IMG/VR virus record: IMGVR_UViG_2851966386_000003
Location: 1 to 49,389 of that record
DNA length: 49,389 nucleotides
Strand: one strand, 5' to 3'
From: a virus
Taxonomy: Duplodnaviria > Heunggongvirae > Uroviricota > Caudoviricetes
Both the position numbers and the translations under genes were made by a program. Position 1 is the stretch's first letter, and every line of letters begins with the position of its first letter. Below, piece after piece: positions 2,811-20,544 of this stretch. The notes under the pieces are model-generated. The model searched no databases. It had not been told where the DNA came from and saw only the letters and a program-made list of their open reading frames with translations.

Positions 2811-5800
2811 TTATGCCTGTACGCGCAGCGCTTCGAGACGGCGCATATCAAAATCGTTAAGTTCTTCGGTGTAGTCTTCGGTAATCGGCGCCGGCCATTC
2901 GCCAGTGTCAAAACCGTTCGCGATGGCACGCATTGCTTTGCGATATTCCAGCATGCCGAGTTCCAGCAGTTCTTCGGATGCCTCGATGATGGCGATCCAG
3001 TGGTAGTTCTCGTCTTTGTTGACGAATATCCAGAAGAACTGGTCAAGGGCTGCGGTTTCGCAGTACATAGCCGCGCTCAGGTGGTAATCGCGCTCGATGA
3101 TTTCCCGGTGCAATTTGGCGCGCAGGCCTTCCTGCTTGATGTTCCACATGCTGATGGTTTTAAGGTCCGCACCGATGCGCAGGCCGCCCATGTCAATCTC
3201 AAGGTCAGGACGCACACGAACTTCCAGCCCGGTTTCCTCATCAATGCCGAAATAGCTCACCTCGACGGCACGGCTCGGGTGCGTCAACAACTTGCCGGCG
3301 GTCGGGTGGTTCAACAGTGCTTTCTGAATGGCAAGTGCCGTAGCCAGCTGCTGGCGGGTTACCAGCACTTTTCCTTCAGGGTTTTCGCGCCATGCATCCA
3401 GCAACTCATCGGCAAACACGGCATCCGGTTTAACCGATTTCACGGCCTGAATCAGATCCGCCTTAGTACCTGATACTTTCAGCGGCTGCGCCTTCTGTGC
3501 ATCCTGCGCAACCATGTCAGGATTAATAAGTGCCAGCTGTTCCAGTAAGGCATCGCGGCTACCGCTGGTTTTCACCTGGGCGGGCATGGTCGCGTTGTAT
3601 TCCTTGATGCATGCCTTCATAGCGGTGGCAGTTTGCTTCTGTCCGTCTTCAATGCGCTGGAACTCAGCAGGTAAAGACATATAACCTTGGCCGGTTTCTT
3701 CAACTGATGTACCCAAAGGAACCTGGGCGGGCAGGGTCGCGTTGTATTCCTCCAGGAATCTCTTGATGTCATCTGCGCTGAGCAAAACCGGAAGCCCGTT
3801 GTTGTACTCGTCGATAAACGCACGGATCGTCGCAGTCGTGGTGAATGCGCCTTCCGGGATTTCGGGCTCGATGCTGAATTCTTTTTCCAGTTGATCAGGT
3901 TGCAGCGCCAGTGCATGCACTAGATTTCCCATATCCAGAACAGGGGAGCGTACCTTCTGGATGGTCTTGGATACGTGGCGCGCCTCGAAATACATCAGCG
4001 ATACCCGGGCATCTTTAACCATCGTGGAGCTGATGCCGTTAGCGGCGTGGTAGACCTCATTTGGCACGCCTTCATATCGACCAGGCTCGAAATACTCCGG
4101 CCATGCTGGCGCTGCATGTTCAGCCTCTTCCTCTACATCGCTATGAGCACTCTCGGAAACCTGGCTTTTCAGCACTTCGGCGGTAAGATCCGGGCAGCGT
4201 TCAGCCAGTATTTTGCTCATGTTCACGGCAGTTGTTTGCGCAGGAGGCTCATCAGCGCCTTTGCCTGCTGATACCGCATTATCATTTTCGTCTTCGACCG
4301 GCTGAGCCGTTTCCATCTGCACATCGCTGGTGGTTTCCCCGGAATTAGCTGGATGTAATTTTTCTTCTGCAGCGCGCTGGCGCGCCTGGTCCACGATAGA
4401 AAGTGCTGGTGCTGGTGCTGGTGCTGGTGCTGGTGCTGGCTGGCTATCCATCAGACCATCAATCGAAAAAACACCATTGCCCATGTTTGAAACTTCAGGC
4501 TGTTTGGGCTTGGTCAGGTCTTCGGTTATCCACTTCGGATCCGTGGGGTCACTGATACCTTCGACATATTCACCACGTTCGGCGGCCAGAACCTGATTAG
4601 CGTCAGGACGTTTCTTTTGAGCTTCTTTCACCAGTTCGGTGCCAATTACCTGAAAGTCAGTTGGGATAGTTTCCAGGTCAGGTACACCTTCATCTCCATC
4701 GATAGCCTTTTTCACAGCGTCCAGAGTGACGGCGGCAGATGAAACATGACCAGCTTTCTCAAGCGTCTCAGCAGAAGGGGCGTCATGCTTATGCTCGGTC
4801 AGGTTCGCATTGATATAGGTCTGCAGACTTACCGGGAAATGATGAATATCGCTGGTGGCGCCACGAATAAGGGCAAAAATGGCGGCGCGGGAATAATCCA
4901 GGATGCCTGCAACCTTGCGCAGCGCTGCAGACCATTCCTTGAACGGACTTTCTTTCTTCTGGACGATCTCTTTGGCCCGGCGGTGAATTGATGCCGGGAA
5001 ATTGTAGATATCGAAATCCATTGGCATTGTGGCCAGGGCTATTTCTACATCGAGCGTATCAAGGGTATGGGTGTAGTCAGGGTTGCGATCGGTTTTATTA
5101 CTGCCGCCAGCATTCGTAACTGCATCGGTTTTCATAACTGAAGAAATGTAGTTACCGGCAGCCCATTCCCTGGTGAGAATGCCGCGGTCGATCGCGTTCG
5201 TGGCGAACCACAACTTTGCAAACTGAATACGTTTGCCGAGCTCATGCCGTTTCCCTTCCGGGAAGACTTTTTTATTGGCGCTGGTGAATTTCCAGAGCGC
5301 CGGCATATCGTATTTTTTGATTTCATGGACATTCTCGGCGGCCAGAATCAGGTCCTGAACGGCTGCGTTATCAGTGTCCATTTCAAGAACTGACAGCTCC
5401 TGCCGGTGAGGCATGCTGATATGATAAACGTGGCGTTCTTCGGCCATATACTGCGCCAGCAGCTGGGTGCGAAAGGGGAGTTCTGCCACGTTAAAAAGCG
5501 CGCTTGAATCGTTCTGGTATTCATCGCTACCGAAAGTTTCCACGGTCTCACCTTGTGCCGCGTCGACAGTGGTATAGGCATCAACCGGCTCGCCAGTAAC
5601 GGCCCCAGAGGTTACTCCGGCATCATCGTGATGAACATCAGCAGGCGCCTGTCCTGGCTTCAAAGTCCAGGTGCGGCCATCGTCGCCGAGCTGGTAGCGT
5701 TCGCACCATGAGTAATCGAGAACACCCTCCGCCGGCAGGTCGTTGAATACCGGGAAATCGGTGCGAATAGGTTTTTGATAGTCTTTGCCGCGGCCTGTTT

Positions 5801-8490: not shown

Positions 8491-9408
8491 ATGTCAAATA
8501 CCGCTGAAGTTATCAATTTTCCAATCAAAACCGAACTAACGGGAGGTCGCATGGCCGACCTGTCCAACGGCTATACCAGAATCGCCAATGAGATACAGAA
8601 ACTCAAACCGAGGCTGCGCATGTCCGGGCGCGAGTGGCAGTGTCTTGAGGCTGTTATCTGGCTTACCTACGGATGGAACAAAAAACAGGATCGGGTGACG
8701 AATACCGTGATTTCTGAGTTAACCGGCTTGAGTGATTCTCATGTTTCAGATGCGATAAAGCTACTCGCGGCACGGGGAATTATTTTTAGTCACAAGCATG
8801 GTGTGATGAAAACTGTCGGTATAAATACTGAGCTATCCGCCTGGATTTTGGACAAACCGAAAACGGGAAAACTCTTCCCGAAAACGGGAATTTCCTTCCC
8901 GGAATCGGGAAAAACCTTCCCGGAAACGGTAGACACCCAAGACTATAACAAAAACAATATTAAAAGATCTTCGTCTCGGAATTCTGAAGAATCCCGAAAC
9001 AAGGAAACATTGAAGTTTCTCTCTCGTCATCCAGAAGCGGTCGATGGGATTTATACCCCTGCAGGAAAATCCTGGGGAACAGCTGACGACCTCAAAGCCG
9101 CGCGATGGATTTTCGATAAAACCCTCACCGTGAATGCCTCCCTCTCAGAGCCGAACTGGGTTGAATGGGCAAATACCATCCGTCTGATGCGCATGCAGGA
9201 CAAACGCAGCCATTACGAAATTTGCGAATTGTTCAAGTGGGCCAACGAAGACAGCTTCTGGCAGAACAACATTCTGAGCCCCACCAGCCTGCGGAAACAG
9301 TGGGATCAGCTCACGACTAAACGCCTGCGCAACCATGGTCCATCCAGAAGCGCATCAGGCGCCAGTGCGCTGGACAACACAGACTGGATCAACGGGGTAC
9401 TCGAATGA
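8491..9408 (+). CDS. O: Replication initiator protein O (lambda O-like)
   Basis: N-terminus parallels lambda O (NTAEVINF...LTYGWNK...DRVT); iteron array embedded mid-gene. Confidence 0.85.
   Translation: MSNTAEVINFPIKTELTGGRMADLSNGYTRIANEIQKLKPRLRMSGREWQCLEAVIWLTYGWNKKQDRVTNTVISELTGLSDSHVSDAIKLLAARGIIFSHKHGVMKTVGINTELSAWILDKPKTGKLFPKTGISFPESGKTFPETVDTQDYNKNNIKRSSSRNSEESRNKETLKFLSRHPEAVDGIYTPAGKSWGTADDLKAARWIFDKTLTVNASLSEPNWVEWANTIRLMRMQDKRSHYEICELFKWANEDSFWQNNILSPTSLRKQWDQLTTKRLRNHGPSRSASGASALDNTDWINGVLE
8857..8975. repeat. Iteron array plus AT-rich tract inside O gene (putative phage origin)
   Basis: Repeated cccgaaaacgggaa-like units at 8857-8929 followed by AT-rich stretch caagactataacaaaaacaatattaaaag; same layout as lambda ori inside O. 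Confidence 0.6.
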
Positions 9409-10148
9409 AATCTATCGCAGAAAGCATGCACAACTTCGACCGTGAAAACTTCCAGCGAGTGGCTGCCGGGCTTCCGGAAATGCAGGACGAGCAGGCATTA
9501 AAGCGCCAGGCGGCCAAGACTGCGGAGATCTTCAACGAGCTGTTCCGCCAGCTGCTTGCCGTATTCCCGGTGCTGGCCAACAAATCTGTGGAAGACCTCA
9601 ACGAGATGCGTCGCCAGTGGTTGTTGGCGTTCAAAGAGAACGGGATCACCACAGTTGAGCAGGTTAACGCAGGGATGCGGGTTGCGCGCAAACAGGAAAA
9701 ACCATTCATGCCATCACCGGGACAGTTCGTCGCCTGGTGTCGTTCTGAGGAGGCGGTAACTGTAGGCCTGCCAGATGCGAGTGAGCTGGTTGAAATGGTT
9801 TACCAGTATTGCCGGACTCGCGGCCAGTATCCAGACGCTGAGTCGTACCCATGGCCTGAGCACAAAATCGAACCGTTAACGCTGAAACACAAAGCCTGCT
9901 ACTGGATGGTTACTGGCTTGTACGCAGACATGCGCGCAAACGGCCTCAGCGACACTGAGTTGCGACGTAAGGCGCAGGATGAGCTGCTGCGTATGGTTCG
10001 TCGCTTGAATGCCGGGGAAGTGATTCCCGAGCCGGTTAAGCAGATCCCAAAGCTTGGCGGACGTCCGCTTAGTAACGAGCAGGGCTTAAACAGAATCGCT
10101 GAAATCCGCGCGAAATTCGGTTTAGGCAGAGGGCGGAAACATGGCTAG
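9405..10148 (+). CDS. P: Replication protein P (helicase loader, lambda P-like)
   Basis: Long stretches match lambda P by eye (ITTVEQVNAGMRVAR...PSPGQFVAWCR...YPDAESYPW...GEVIPEPVKQ). Confidence 0.85.
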   Translation: MKSIAESMHNFDRENFQRVAAGLPEMQDEQALKRQAAKTAEIFNELFRQLLAVFPVLANKSVEDLNEMRRQWLLAFKENGITTVEQVNAGMRVARKQEKPFMPSPGQFVAWCRSEEAVTVGLPDASELVEMVYQYCRTRGQYPDAESYPWPEHKIEPLTLKHKACYWMVTGLYADMRANGLSDTELRRKAQDELLRMVRRLNAGEVIPEPVKQIPKLGGRPLSNEQGLNRIAEIRAKFGLGRGRKHG

Positions 10149-10476
10149 AGCATTATCAGCAGTTGAGCGCAGAGAGTACGTCCGCGCAGTGATTCGGATC
10201 ACCAGGCATCAGGGGCGCCTTACGACCACCGAGGCAATGAAAAAACTGGGGCTGAGCCGCGCTACTGTCCAGCGGTATTTTTCCGAAGCAGAAGCGACTG
10301 GCGAGGTTGTCCGGCATGGTCGTCTGGGGCTGTTCTGCGATCAGAGGGCCGTCATCGACTTTGACATGAAGCGTTTTGGCCTGGTGCCGAAAGTTGCTGT
10401 TGGGATGAATTACAGCCTGCTTGGCAGTCCTGTTTTTCAGCGAGTTTTAGATGTTCAGGAGGCTATTCATGGCTAA
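10141..10476 (+). CDS. Hypothetical protein (Ren-like position)
   Basis: 111-aa ORF overlapping end of P; position equivalent to lambda ren. Confidence 0.4.
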   Translation: MARALSAVERREYVRAVIRITRHQGRLTTTEAMKKLGLSRATVQRYFSEAEATGEVVRHGRLGLFCDQRAVIDFDMKRFGLVPKVAVGMNYSLLGSPVFQRVLDVQEAIHG

Positions 10477-11254
10477 GAATTCAATCGATGTATACGGTGC
10501 CAGCGGCAAAACAAATGTGCTCAATTTCGAGCCTGAAAACCTGCACCTTGTCACCGATAAGACCCACCCACTTTACGATGAGCGTGTACACCTGCCGATC
10601 GAGGAAGGAATGGTACTGAACATTGCGGAGCTGGGGGTACTGGAGCCAATCATCGTCTGGAAAGACCCTGAAACGGGGCTCACCTGCGTAGTTGTTGGCC
10701 GTCAGCGCGTTAAGCATACCCTGGAGGCAAATAAACTCCGTCTGAAAGAAGGCAAAGACCGACTGCTTGTTCCCGGAGTCGTTAAGCGCGGATCAGCAAA
10801 TCAGATGGCTAAATACATGGTCAGCGAAAACGAAATTCGCAGACCCGATACGCCGCTTGGCCGGGCTAAAAAAATGTCAGATGCCCTCGACCGCGGGCTC
10901 GATGAGGACGACATTGCGGTGTTGTTTGGCTGCAGCGTTCAGACAGTTCGAGCAACGCTCTCCCTCCTCGATGCTACTCAGGCCGTCAGGGAAGCGGTGG
11001 AGGCTGGCACAGTCACCGTTACCCAGGCGCGTCAGCTGGCATCGCTTAAACCCGAAGAGCAGCGGGCAAAAGTGGCAGAAATCAAGCTGGCGACAGCTGG
11101 CGCAACCGGCCATGAAAAAGCCCGGCGTCAGCGTCAGATCCTCGGTGATGCAAAGCCTCGCCTGAAAACCCGCAAAGAAATCACAAAAGCTCTGGAATCT
11201 GCCGAGGGTGAGTATGCGAGCGCACTCCGTTGGGTGCTCGGGGAGGCTGTATGA
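10469..11254 (+). CDS. ParB-like nuclease domain protein
   Basis: ParB N-terminal-domain-like region (IVWKDPETGLTCVVVGRQR) and HTH-like segment; AGGAGG SD 6 nt before ATG 10469. Confidence 0.55.
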   Translation: MAKNSIDVYGASGKTNVLNFEPENLHLVTDKTHPLYDERVHLPIEEGMVLNIAELGVLEPIIVWKDPETGLTCVVVGRQRVKHTLEANKLRLKEGKDRLLVPGVVKRGSANQMAKYMVSENEIRRPDTPLGRAKKMSDALDRGLDEDDIAVLFGCSVQTVRATLSLLDATQAVREAVEAGTVTVTQARQLASLKPEEQRAKVAEIKLATAGATGHEKARRQRQILGDAKPRLKTRKEITKALESAEGEYASALRWVLGEAV

Positions 11255-11454
11255 CAATCGTAAAAACCCATATCGGCACCGTGATCACCAAAGACGGTCC
11301 GAAGGTAAAAAAACTGCACCAGACAGAGCGGATGTGGGTCGTCGGCAAAAACGAGTTTTACAACAAAGAAACCGGGCGCCGTCACTTTGCAGAAAATACG
11401 CGCCGCCGGCTGCTGCTCGACACCATCAAGCCTATTGAGGTGAAGCATGTTTAA
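11251..11454 (+). CDS. Hypothetical phage protein
   Basis: ATGA overlap with upstream stop (translational coupling). Confidence 0.45.
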   Translation: MTIVKTHIGTVITKDGPKVKKLHQTERMWVVGKNEFYNKETGRRHFAENTRRRLLLDTIKPIEVKHV

Positions 11455-11683
11455 ACAGAACGAAAAGGCTATTTCACAGATTGCGGAATATATCCCGCGC
11501 GCCTGCCGGGGTATGCAGCTGCAGGAAGCGAAAGCGCGTCTGGAGAAAAAAATCGCGCTCTATACCGATGACGGCTGTGATGTTGCCGTTCTTAACGCGG
11601 CGTTTGCATCAGCTCTTAACAGTCATACGCGGGAGTCTTTTTTTTCGTGCATTTATGCGCAGCTGCGCGAGGGGGCCAGATGA
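11447..11683 (+). CDS. Hypothetical phage protein
   Basis: 78-aa ORF, start overlaps previous stop. Confidence 0.45.
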   Translation: MFKQNEKAISQIAEYIPRACRGMQLQEAKARLEKKIALYTDDGCDVAVLNAAFASALNSHTRESFFSCIYAQLREGAR

Positions 11684-12347
11684 CAATCACATAACATGCA
11701 CTAAACGAGCTCATTCAGTCGCTTGAGTCGGCTGGTTAGCTGTCGCAATGGGCTGATATGCAGTTCTTGCTGTGGGACGCCCAGCGCCGGGCTGGTATCA
11801 CTGATGATCAAGATTACCCAAGCGATGATCGATGAGCTCGCGGTAAACAAGCAGCACTCATTGCCGGAGCCGAAAGATGGAGAGCCAATACTGCATTTGA
11901 AATAATAGCTACCTTTACTTTTAAAATTACACATTTAATGGTTGTATCTTTTTGCAGCAAGTAGTTAAATCAGTTTATCCCCGCGAGAGATTCGAAAAGG
12001 AGGGCCCAATTTTGTCCGAGTTTTTGTATTCCCCCGCATGCCGCTGCAGAGCACTACATCTGAGCGTCTGACCAGGGGATGAACCAAGATTGGATAGTGA
12101 GAAGAAAGTGGCGCGTAAGGCTGAGCTGAGCGTGCCGGCTGACCCGGATGGGGAGCAGCTTTCGCCGATGTCGTAGTGGACGTCGGTCAATGCATGAAAA
12201 GCTGAGAGGTCAGACAACCAACTTGCCAGAGGAGCATCTCCTGCGTGATGCTTGAGAGCTAACCGAAAGCAATGCGAAAAAGCATAAACTCGGCCTGCCA
12301 ATCGTCCTTATTATCCGCCTGATAGCAGTTTGTGACTGGGAGTGGAT

Positions 12348-12629
12348 ATGTTAGTAGATTATCTTTTGATTGGACTTAAGCGTCATGGAGAGATAAAACA
12401 AGTCAAGCATAAGGCTGGAGATATGCTTGAGTCGTCACTGGCTTTTTATCCTGCAAATAATTACAACCTTGAGCAGCCAAATTGCGTTTATGATGTTAAG
12501 GTAATTCACCACCGAGGGCATCGTTATGCTATTGCTATTGCATGCGATGTAAATGCTTCAGAAATTAATTCCTTGGTTGAATCCACAAAAATGAACCCCA
12601 TCCCCGATGGTGTAATCGGGGAAATCTGA
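12348..12629 (+). CDS. Hypothetical protein, AT-rich cargo gene
   Basis: ORF 12342..12629; ATG 12348 preceded by GGGAGTGG; composition visibly more AT-rich than flanking phage genes. Confidence 0.45.
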   Translation: MLVDYLLIGLKRHGEIKQVKHKAGDMLESSLAFYPANNYNLEQPNCVYDVKVIHHRGHRYAIAIACDVNASEINSLVESTKMNPIPDGVIGEI

Positions 12630-12806
12630 TGTTGGAATCAAAGGAGTTTGTCATAGATTGATGGAATGAATGTGGACGTACTTACATCATCTAGACCTGA
12701 TATAAGAGATGGTTTAGGCTGTGATAAACTCTAATGCGAACAAACGATCTAGTTACCCTGCGTTACATCACTATGGCCTGCCTGATCGAAAAAATAAGGA
12801 GGGGGT

Positions 12807-13295
12807 GTGTCAAATTTTCTTTCTTTTATTGGGGTGCTTGTATCAATAGCTAGCTGTTATTATGCATACAAAGCATTCACATCTGCTAAAGAAATATCCT
12901 TTCCGGAAAAAAAGCCTCGTGAAAATATGTGTGTTATTAGATTTTTCTCGAAAGAAGCTAAGGAATTTGAAGGTTTTATAAACAAAAATAAACATAAAAA
13001 AGTGTATTTGAATATTGAGTTTGAAGGAAGTGAATTTGAAATCAATGAGGATGGTGATTCCCGCTGGTTGGTTGTCTGGACTGATACCTTTCAGGAAGTC
13101 CCTAAAGGTGAAAAGCTTGACACTTCAAACTGTAACGGGTATCAATTGACTATCATTCCTCATGAGGATGGGTTTGGTAATTTTCACTGGTTTCGTGGAG
13201 CTTATCAACTATCGGGGCATTTCTATATTGATGGATATAGTGGGCCTTATCAGGGTCTAATGAGTGCTGTTATCTCTGCTGCCAAAACCATATAA
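12807..13295 (+). CDS. Membrane-anchored hypothetical protein, AT-rich cargo gene
   Basis: 162-aa ORF, GTG start 5 nt after AGGAGG; N-terminal TM helix (FLSFIGVLVSIASCYYAY). Confidence 0.5.
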   Translation: MSNFLSFIGVLVSIASCYYAYKAFTSAKEISFPEKKPRENMCVIRFFSKEAKEFEGFINKNKHKKVYLNIEFEGSEFEINEDGDSRWLVVWTDTFQEVPKGEKLDTSNCNGYQLTIIPHEDGFGNFHWFRGAYQLSGHFYIDGYSGPYQGLMSAVISAAKTI

Positions 13296-13380
13296 GCAGT
13301 TTTGATTTTTTTTCATCATTCATAATCAGTACGTCAGCCTGAACAACTAACATTTTTTATCCAGCGCCAAGTGAGGACAC

Positions 13381-13608
13381 ATGGCGCACAAAGTAAAAAA
13401 ACACTCGGATTATAGATTTGTATGCAATAACCCTTCTGATCGTGATGATTGTTCAGGTTGTTGTAGTGAATGCAGTATTTTCTGCGTGGGGCTTGGGCTT
13501 CTACGGCTATCTGATGAAGTCCTGACGATTTTCGCGGGATGCTCAATGCCTCATATCTGTGGTCTTGTTTACTGCGTTATCCAATCTGTTTTCCTGGCAA
13601 AAAAATAA
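13381..13608 (+). CDS. Small Cys-rich hydrophobic protein
   Basis: 75-aa ORF with GAGGA SD; followed by hairpin terminator. Confidence 0.3.
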   Translation: MAHKVKKHSDYRFVCNNPSDRDDCSGCCSECSIFCVGLGLLRLSDEVLTIFAGCSMPHICGLVYCVIQSVFLAKK

Positions 13609-13637
13609 AAGCCTTCTCTGCGGAGAGGGCTTTTTTA
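13607..13637 (+). terminator. Rho-independent terminator
   Basis: gccttctc tgcg gagagggc stem-loop followed by tttttt. Confidence 0.6.
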
Positions 13638-17468: not shown

Positions 17469-17548
17469 GCCTGTGATTAGTCGCTCTTCGATAGCAATGT
17501 ATGCAGAGTGTATTGACGCTAGCTATGTTTACAGCATAACGTATTGAT

Positions 17549-17657
17549 GTGGTGAATCCCCCTATGCGGAGGGGCGACCAGTCAGTTACAGAAACCTGTA
17601 AATGCAGCGCGGCCATGCCGACTGGGGCATGCTCACCGGGAGGCACCCGGCACCACA
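17549..17657 (+). repeat. Copy 1 of ~108-nt structured repeat element (candidate ncRNA or recombination site)
   Basis: gtggtgaatccccctatgcggaggggcgaccagtc...gactggggca...ccgggaggcacccggcaccaca; shares conserved 5' and 3' arms with copy at 20245..20351. Confidence 0.6.
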
Positions 17658-17816
17658 CTGCCACATAACATATTTAAGATTTATGGAAGGTTTACTTCTG
17701 CGGTTGCCCTTCTATGTTTATAGAACGTAACGGCAAAAGTGAATGCTTCCTGGTAAATCGGTAGCTCGGACTATTAGGAGTGGCTTCGTTTCGTTACTAC
17801 CTAGAATGCCTACTTT

Positions 17817-19991: not shown

Positions 19992-20244
19992 GTGAGTTAA
20001 CCCTCCTAGGGACCATGGATATTATGGTTCGCATGAGGGGTAGTGTGGGATTTAAGTGAGAAAATTCCTAACTGGAATTTTTTCTTAATTTGAAACCTGA
20101 TATGAAACTTTATTGTTGGTTTTGTAATGATTCAATATGAAATGATTAATTATTGTCTGCCAGGATATACAGTTTTCCGAAAGAGGTGTTTTTACTGGTT
20201 ACATCGGATTGACTATGCACTTATCGCATAGCTAATGTAGATGC

Positions 20245-20351
20245 GTGGTGAATCCCCCTGTGCGGTGGGGCGACCAGCCAGGTTTTCTCTTTGAGCACAC
20301 ACGCAGGTCTGTTGGCTGGGGCAGACTTACCGGGAGGCACCCGGCACCACA
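20245..20351 (+). repeat. Copy 2 of ~108-nt structured repeat element
   Basis: gtggtgaatccccctgtgcggtggggcgaccagcc...ggctggggca...ccgggaggcacccggcaccaca; possible hairpin terminator at 20371-20397. Confidence 0.6.
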
Positions 20352-20544
20352 ACATACTGCATAACCCCATAAAGGCCTTCCATTACGGTAGGCCTTTTCT
20401 CTTCTGGTTGTATCTAATACTGTGGGCAGGTCAGCTGGCTTATGCAGGACAGATTATTTTTTCTTATTGAATGCCGCTTCTGGTGTGCTTATATTCTACC
20501 TAAAAATGGGTAGGTGTGTTGTGATTAGAAAATGCTATGCAAGA

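Follow-up and report, generated by a model that had tools for sequence, protein, structure and literature searches.

The interval that separates the replication-associated genes from an AT-rich cassette in a lambda-like Klebsiella prophage (a stretch of 49,389 nt, hereafter called the window) is made up of three distinct parts: gene debris at 11681-11905, a spacer at 11906-11976 and, at 11977-12307, a block whose + strand folds into a large RNA. We have little doubt that the structured RNA is real. The overall reading that we favour, with a confidence somewhat above even, is that the left part is pseudogene debris and the right part an autonomous prophage RNA gene, belonging to an uncatalogued family of structured RNAs of about 330 nt.

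According to the ORF list, the preceding ORF ends at 11683 and the cassette starts at ATG 12348 (or GTG 12342). As the original prediction held, there is no credible gene within 11684-12341, where the intervening ORFs are short or unconserved; the longest, of 108 aa, lies on the minus strand at 11975-12301, and neither it nor three other ORFs of the interval has a match in Pfam or PHROGs. A tRNA/tmRNA scan and a repeat scan of the interval for tandem repeats both came back empty. The sequence had also been described as GC-balanced with several inverted repeats. Four short inverted repeats were indeed found in the interval, one of which (11973-11982 with 12075-12084) is a helix of the conserved RNA; the balance in GC applies at about 0.53-0.56, but not at 11800-12099, where the content dips to 0.40-0.42. 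The three explanations first offered for the interval (a structured non-coding RNA, a long regulated leader of the cassette, or a decayed gene) each fit a different part of it, as supported by the evidence below.

The decayed gene is found on the left. At 11681-11745, on the + strand, lies an N-terminal gene fragment broken by two in-frame stops (MTIT, stop, HALNELIQSLESAG, stop, LS). The gene is intact in a homologous locus (L064), whose protein matches the window at 82% identity over 22 residues with the two stops in between (tblastn, E=7e-8); 22 codons of it are left, and its first ATG overlaps the stop of the preceding gene. Directly abutting it, at 11741-11905 of the same strand, is what remains of a dATP/dGTP pyrophosphohydrolase gene (PF04447): its C-terminal third, shifted by a +1 frameshift near 11810. 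An intact homologue of 169 aa occupies the same place in Klebsiella phage Kp4856-1 (3656-4165 of that locus, L002; PF04447 at 1.5e-39), and by tblastn the window matches this protein in two different frames; the two also align as DNA. The stretch therefore has homology to intact genes and is broken by stops and a frameshift, as a pseudogene should be. A deletion has thus fused two genes, which later acquired mutations; 11681-11905 is non-functional debris, two fragments joined by deletion and then damaged by two stops and a frameshift. Some distance away, after the cassette, a 75-aa ORF (13381-13608; 13418-13525) appears to be the gene of a small membrane protein disrupted by a frameshift; the protein (MAHK...DLYAITLLIL...) is intact in two other loci (L071 and L149), and in the window its hydrophobic part lies in a second frame. 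This frameshift would be a further sign of decay in the region; the strong terminator at 13607-13634 comes next after the ORF.

The block to the right is about 330 nt long, and it was recovered from some 90 prophage, phage and metagenome loci at 76-100% identity to the window. By megablast, four phage records match: Klebsiella phages Kp4856-1 and Kp4862-1 (86%) and Escherichia phages IdasGreatGrand and Turner (83%). In E. coli, 158-164 of 5426 complete genomes (about 3%) carry it; it is found there in a DLP12-like prophage, flanked on one side by a truncated antirepressor gene and on the other by an ORF of 118 aa. Except in the Klebsiella relatives, only window positions 11977-12296 are matched. 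Further loci from IMG/VR and 26 metagenome contigs were added by motif scans, all of them confirmed by nhmmer, and the 87 copies that were extracted reduce to 34 distinct cores and to 14 clusters at 97% identity. Wider scans added nothing: a two-motif scan of one genome per species gave chance matches only (two in Photorhabdus fall in an unrelated coding region), a scan of viral contigs with a motif from the 5′ domain of the RNA found no new clade, its extra matches being unrelated coding sequence, and no match to the block was found on plasmids. The family thus looks narrow, and would be a property of lambda-like prophages of Enterobacteriaceae.

The block is non-coding. The 108-aa minus-strand ORF is interrupted in the homologues from E. 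coli and Kp4856-1, and the longest stretch left open in any one of the distinct sequences measures between 70 and 111 aa (70-78 aa in the clades with an interruption, against 110-111 aa elsewhere). Variable columns are distributed over the three codon phases as 50, 46 and 56 (p=0.61), that is, with no periodicity. With a frame that is unconserved, no Pfam or PHROGs match and no codon periodicity, this ORF was rejected as a gene. Comparison of homologues, proposed at the outset as a check that an intact conserved ORF would turn into a refutation, found no such ORF across the block; what is conserved instead is a folded structure, so that the decayed-gene option, correct for the left part, does not extend to this one. 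In phage IdasGreatGrand, two short coding sequences annotated as 'hypothetical protein' (3956-4087 and 4137-4256 of locus L001) lie over the block; they are probably spurious, because the ORFs are not conserved. In the E. coli rows listed there is no annotated feature under the match, RefSeq being blank over the block in those examined, so the family has consequences for annotation as well. One might still suppose that the entire interval, the block included, is decaying junk or hides an unrecognised protein gene, the left third being truly decayed and the 108-aa ORF spanning the block in the window's own clade. Yet that ORF is interrupted in other clades and has no family match, and the block is retained, with variation that preserves its structure, by plaque-forming phages as well as by about 3% of E. 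coli genomes. We consider this supposition extremely improbable: broken ORFs, the lack of periodicity and the fold largely refute it.

A smaller product was weighed too. On the + strand a 19-codon ORF runs from TTG 12012 to TGA 12071 (MSEFLYSPACRCRALHLSV), preceded 8 nt upstream by a strong Shine-Dalgarno-like AAGGAGG, and the remainder of the block could be its mRNA. The frame is open in most clades, where it shows synonymous changes (TAT/TAC, TGC/TGT, AGC/AGT). However, three distinct E. coli-type sequences have a stop after codon 12 (TGC TGA), one locus (L096) has a frameshift and has lost the GGAGG, and two single nucleotides are deleted in another (L156). None of the three codon positions varies in this region, and substitutions are not periodic; the Shine-Dalgarno-like motif and start lie within the arm of the predicted P2 hairpin, the start partly in the stem; and such a peptide would leave the covariation of a 240-nt second domain unexplained. 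A small protein as the product of the block is therefore very unlikely.

The + strand of 11977-12307 is the strand that folds, into two domains and 16 helices that are maintained by compensatory and wobble changes. Domain 1 (11977-12080) consists of a closing helix UCCCC/GGGGA, a three-way junction, a long A/U-rich hairpin and a hairpin CGCUGCAGAG/UCUGAGCG. It is recovered both by RNAalifold and by single-sequence minimum free energy folding, and its helices 1-4 are 98-100% paired, with variation that is mostly G-U wobble; because the domain is almost invariant, these helices say little on pairing. Domain 2 (12088-12303) is closed by a helix GAUUGG/CCAAUC around a multi-branch core and contains helices 5-16, with most of the compensatory changes in peripheral hairpins and with long invariant unpaired stretches such as GAGAGGUCAGACAACCAA and GAAAGCAAUGCGAAAAAGCAUAAACUCGG. 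For five sequences RNAalifold gave -88.2 kcal/mol with a covariation term of -3.3 on the + strand, against -67.0 and +2.9 on the minus strand; for 36 sequences it gave 82 pairs, 12 of them compensatory. After the variable hairpin region had been refined by hand, the resulting structure of 92 pairs in 16 helices was tested: 95.5% of its cells are paired, compared with 36-46% in controls whose 3′ partners had been shifted by 1-3 columns; 15 of the pairs change on both sides, and the covariation of 0.193 (as against 0.04-0.06) was reached by none of 500 shuffles. As the family is shallow (at least 76% identity, about 8 lineages), part of these covariation counts is inherited. Stability of the single-sequence fold is unremarkable (z = -1.07).

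The strongest helices are 134-139/189-194, 143-145/161-163 and 195-203/210-218. Pair 202/211 occurs as five pair types, pairs 136/192 and 137/191 switch between AU and GC, and at the long-range closing pair 120/333 the window has U-A, its close relatives U-G and E. coli C-G. Single-base variants of the E. coli clade still pair by wobble (19/60, 34/45, 35/44 and 143/163), which suggests that selection is still acting in a defective prophage. There are 380 G-U cells to 5 A-C cells, and 95.5% of cells are canonical on the + strand as against 83.5% on the minus strand; from the excess of G-U over A-C it follows that the + strand is the RNA. The same figures bear on the possibility that the block works as DNA, either as a homology arm for the exchange of lambdoid modules or as an array of protein-binding sites, with any transcript irrelevant. 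The block does mark a recombination junction, with variable DNA on both sides, and chimeric copies exist (L055 and L045). Nevertheless the helices are maintained by compensatory changes, a ratio of 380 to 5 is expected for RNA and not for duplex DNA or a cruciform, and wobble-preserving variants persist in the E. coli clade, so that a purely DNA-level role is highly improbable. As to the chimeras themselves, L055 (14168-14502) has domain 2 only, behind unrelated sequence, and in L045 (3050-3421) the last ~30 nt are replaced; recombination breakpoints therefore fall inside the RNA.

The signals that would make this structured RNA a transcription unit of its own are probably real, in our judgement, and its promoter, 5′ end and stability are all inferred. 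The AT-rich spacer (11906-11976, + strand) carries a conserved promoter-like TTGnnn-17-T(T/A)AAT, which in the window is a putative sigma-70-type promoter at 11942-11970: TTGTAT (11942-11947), a 17-nt spacer and TTAAAT (11965-11970). The predicted start lies close to A11977, with which helix 1 begins. In other clades the elements read TTGAAA-17-TTTAAT or TTGAAA-17-TATTAA, with equal spacing despite different spacer sequence, and a TTGA-type -35 with a T(T/A)AAT -10 at a spacing of 17-18 nt is kept in three otherwise different upstream versions. In no clade does the -10 element agree fully with the consensus, the deviation being at position 2 or 6, and two of the three versions, that of the window included, are without the usual A at position 2; since the -10 lacks a consensus base, a promoter scan never called the element in the window or in the homologous loci scanned.

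At the other end, conservation stops sharply past the closing helix (CAGUCGCC). A homologous CCGCC-N4-GGCGG hairpin followed by 7-8 U residues, with a predicted energy of -12.7 to -15.1 kcal/mol, stands about 10-15 nt after the RNA in 22 of the 87 loci, which include several RNA clades and both membrane-protein and Rx4H types of downstream gene. At 63 of the 87, including all E. coli copies and the window, there is none; besides the E. coli type, two other types are without the hairpin. The window retains a decayed remnant at 12315-12334 (CCGCC-UGAU-AGCAG-UUUGUG, -2.1 kcal/mol) that aligns with the terminator of the homologues; the terminator scan did not call it but did call the intact copy in one of these (L060), and by scan and hairpin energy alike there is no terminator between the RNA and the first cassette ORF in the window. 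The gene that follows starts some 20-40 nt past the terminator, where there is no room for a promoter. In the window the AT-rich cargo occupies 12348-13295 on the + strand, with ORFs of 95 aa (GTG 12342 or ATG 12348 to 12629) and 162 aa (12807-13295) that are expected, on this layout, to share a transcript with the RNA ahead of them; no strong + strand terminator is met until after the cassette, where there is an intrinsic one at 13607-13634 (a 12-bp stem with a T run, from the terminator scan), which probably ends the unit of RNA plus cargo. With its terminator hairpin decayed, the RNA is therefore expected here as the 5′ leader of the cassette.

That expectation is in part what the original prediction had proposed as a long regulated leader: the role of leader is likely to apply in the window, but no conserved terminator/antiterminator alternative accompanies it. 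Taken as the function of the whole family, the proposal would be a cis-acting 5′ untranslated module that acts on its own transcript, whether by put- or EAR-like processive antitermination that makes RNA polymerase resistant to terminators, by setting read-through or by stabilising or insulating the mRNA. The next gene is always co-directional, and the 12-90 nt that separate it from the RNA or its terminator leave no space for a promoter; at the 63 loci without a terminator the RNA is fused to the cargo mRNA as a 5′ UTR; and the window has a single unit that runs from the promoter-like element through RNA and cargo to the strong terminator. Lambdoid early operons, moreover, carry terminators where this RNA sits (in lambda, the nin region), and a mechanism indifferent to the sequence downstream would explain how one RNA goes with many unrelated cargos. 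However, the terminators differ (CCGCC/GGCGG or CCACC/GGTGG) and have no conserved alternative pairing to the RNA, from which it follows that there is no riboswitch-type expression platform; the ribosome-binding sites of the cargo genes differ too and are unpaired to the RNA; and in one locus (L054) the RNA has no cargo at all and is followed by a terminator and ninB. The put RNAs, two-hairpin elements of about 70 nt next to early promoters, are also unlike a 330-nt RNA. On balance we regard a cis-acting leader as rather unlikely, though it is the main rival of the reading that we favour. A riboswitch or attenuator leader in the strict sense was rejected, as the terminators differ or are absent, no alternative pairing is conserved and at least six unrelated ORF families lie downstream.

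Returning to the autonomous RNA gene that we favour, its setting is that of an autonomous module. The block is kept while both flanks vary: upstream genes differ between loci, and downstream are at least six unrelated ORF families (encoding proteins of 118 aa, a membrane protein of 178 aa, an Rx4H protein of 183 aa, proteins of 177 aa, the 95-aa protein of the window, and one other) or, in L054, ninB directly after an RNA with a CCACC/GGUGG terminator and no cargo. The RNA is located where the replication-associated genes give way to the nin region, at the entrance to a slot for interchangeable accessory genes that, to judge from its contents, behaves as a hot spot. In a related phage, Klebsiella phage ST13-OXA48phi12.4, the same slot (8795-11161 of locus L181) is filled by an XRE / ImmA-IrrE pair and an SppA-like gene, the latter on the opposite strand, and the RNA is absent. 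The cargo proteins have no Pfam or PADLOC match and find only PHROGs without assigned function (phrog_23640 in the window). In Kp4856-1 the 183-aa cargo protein (4622-5173 of L002), encoded behind the terminator of the RNA, contains RHNLLH, a HEPN-type Rx4H motif; it too has no Pfam or PADLOC match, phrog_27260 being its only hit. In L096, an isrJ sRNA (1075-1148 in stored coordinates, 66.9 bits) and a tRNA gene (620-691) lie some 3 kb away from the RNA.

A second conserved non-coding element, of about 170 nt, was observed directly after the cargo and before a ybcN/ninB-like gene, so that the cargo has the RNA to its left and this element to its right. Copies occur in L003 (6719-6910), L155 (6241-6420) and L057 (2219-2418, stored on the minus strand), and L096 has two, at 4479-4678 and 3239-3438, one on each side of RNA and cargo; of this element the window has a 76-nt piece only (13317-13392). 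It opens with a promoter-like TTGATT-17-CATAAT, followed by conserved hairpins, and is not an Rfam family.

The RNA of 11977-12307 resembles no catalogued family. With Rfam 15 at the gathering score, the whole window gave only STnc100 (RF02076), outside the RNA: two + strand copies, at 17518-17721 and 20217-20405, scoring 71.9 and 81.5 bits where the gathering score is 47. A search of 11400-12700 at E<=10 gave three chance-level matches only, nine homologous loci searched at E<=1 had nothing at the RNA, and a literature search with fragments of its sequence found nothing relevant. svsR, the Pas sRNAs with STnc100, HnrS and DinR were each considered and are different RNAs.

We file it as a new family within prophage-borne non-coding RNA, with a complexity closer to that of large ornate RNAs than to that of typical enterobacterial sRNAs. 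Like the prophage sRNAs (DicF, IpeX, STnc100/PasD, StxS, AgvB/AsxR, HnrS and svsR), many of which end at an intrinsic terminator and are produced in the lysogen, it is non-coding and borne on lambda-like prophages, and the absence of a conserved reading frame is what one expects of a moron-type sRNA. It differs in being three to five times longer than svsR (77 nt) and HnrS (66 nt); in lying at the replication/nin boundary, whereas svsR is at the 3′ end of cI and Pas/STnc100 are near Q, lysis or structural genes; and in having a 16-helix fold kept by covariation, no Rfam match and no seed or target found in a scan of the phage. GOLLD, ROOL, OLE, raiA and HEARO are likewise long, multi-helix and conserved, with many invariant unpaired bases. 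GOLLD and ROOL are phage-associated and measure roughly 500-800 nt, so that the RNA described here, at about 330 nt, is smaller than those two; it differs from the ornate RNAs in general by a narrow host range (Enterobacteriaceae) and by the lack of similarity to their Rfam models.

Other likenesses are of arrangement. Type III toxin-antitoxin systems of the ToxIN kind also have a promoter, an RNA, an intrinsic terminator and an ORF without an intervening promoter, an order that 22 of the 87 loci here share, with a putative promoter at its head. However, this RNA has no tandem repeats, the ORFs downstream are mutually unrelated and have no defence or Pfam match, and many loci have no terminator; a type III antitoxin was rejected for want of repeats and of a ToxN-like Pfam or PADLOC match in the cargo. 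A CsrA-type sponge was rejected as well, there being about six GGA motifs in some 330 nt, roughly the number due to chance. The put RNA of phage HK022 and the Bacillus EAR are also structured RNAs that can serve in principle any gene downstream, put doing so in a lambdoid early-region transcript, and the position of our RNA directly upstream of a terminator in some loci is a point in common; this resemblance is one of arrangement alone, and size, architecture and position are all different. Finally, lambda 6S RNA and StxS are short transcripts that stop at a terminator before genes reached by read-through, and StxS is reported to show that such a pR'-tR' by-product can act as a regulatory RNA (PMC7547250). 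The RNA of the window, by comparison, is not at a late promoter and has no link to Q, and its fold is under selection, which would not be expected of a mere by-product.

How would an autonomous RNA of this kind work? Given a promoter of its own, it could be transcribed in the lysogen, as prophage 'moron' genes typically are, and the ancestral form, ending at the CCGCC/GGCGG intrinsic terminator, would have been a discrete and stable RNA; that the module is autonomous, that its terminator is common to several types of cargo and that L054 is free of cargo all point to an ancestral stand-alone RNA gene. In the window, where the terminator has decayed, the same RNA would have become the 5′ leader of the cassette for 95 and 162 aa, in a unit ending at 13607-13634. 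The RNA may act in trans, by binding protein or forming an RNP rather than as a simple base-pairing sRNA. Its size, its ornate fold and its invariant loops would suit such an action better, and so would the outcome of a search for sites complementary to it. A scan of the phage alone for base-pairing seeds gave 39 complementary 10-mers, against 12-38 in 20 shuffles, none of them convincing. An invariant loop, CAGACAACCAAC (12211-12222), has a perfect 12-nt complement at 13067-13078, inside the 162-aa cargo ORF; this is probably due to chance, because the cargo is specific to the window, the loop is universal and the count is close to the range of the shuffles.

It is conceivable, if quite unlikely, that the RNA represents a new class of large functional phage RNAs, working as a sensor, as a scaffold for an RNP or by modifying the polymerase, and that it serves lambda-like prophages as the common 'gatekeeper' of an accessory or defence-gene slot, deciding on the expression of a cargo that is interchangeable and may be toxic; were the RNA to gate such a slot, its interest would clearly be greater. 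Large conserved multi-helix RNAs of unassigned role are rare, and this one occurs in prophages of E. coli and Klebsiella as well as in plaque-forming coliphages; with genetics, RNA probing and phage assays being routine there, its role is directly testable. Sitting at the entrance of an accessory-gene hot spot, the RNA could show how the cargo of such a site is expressed or restrained.
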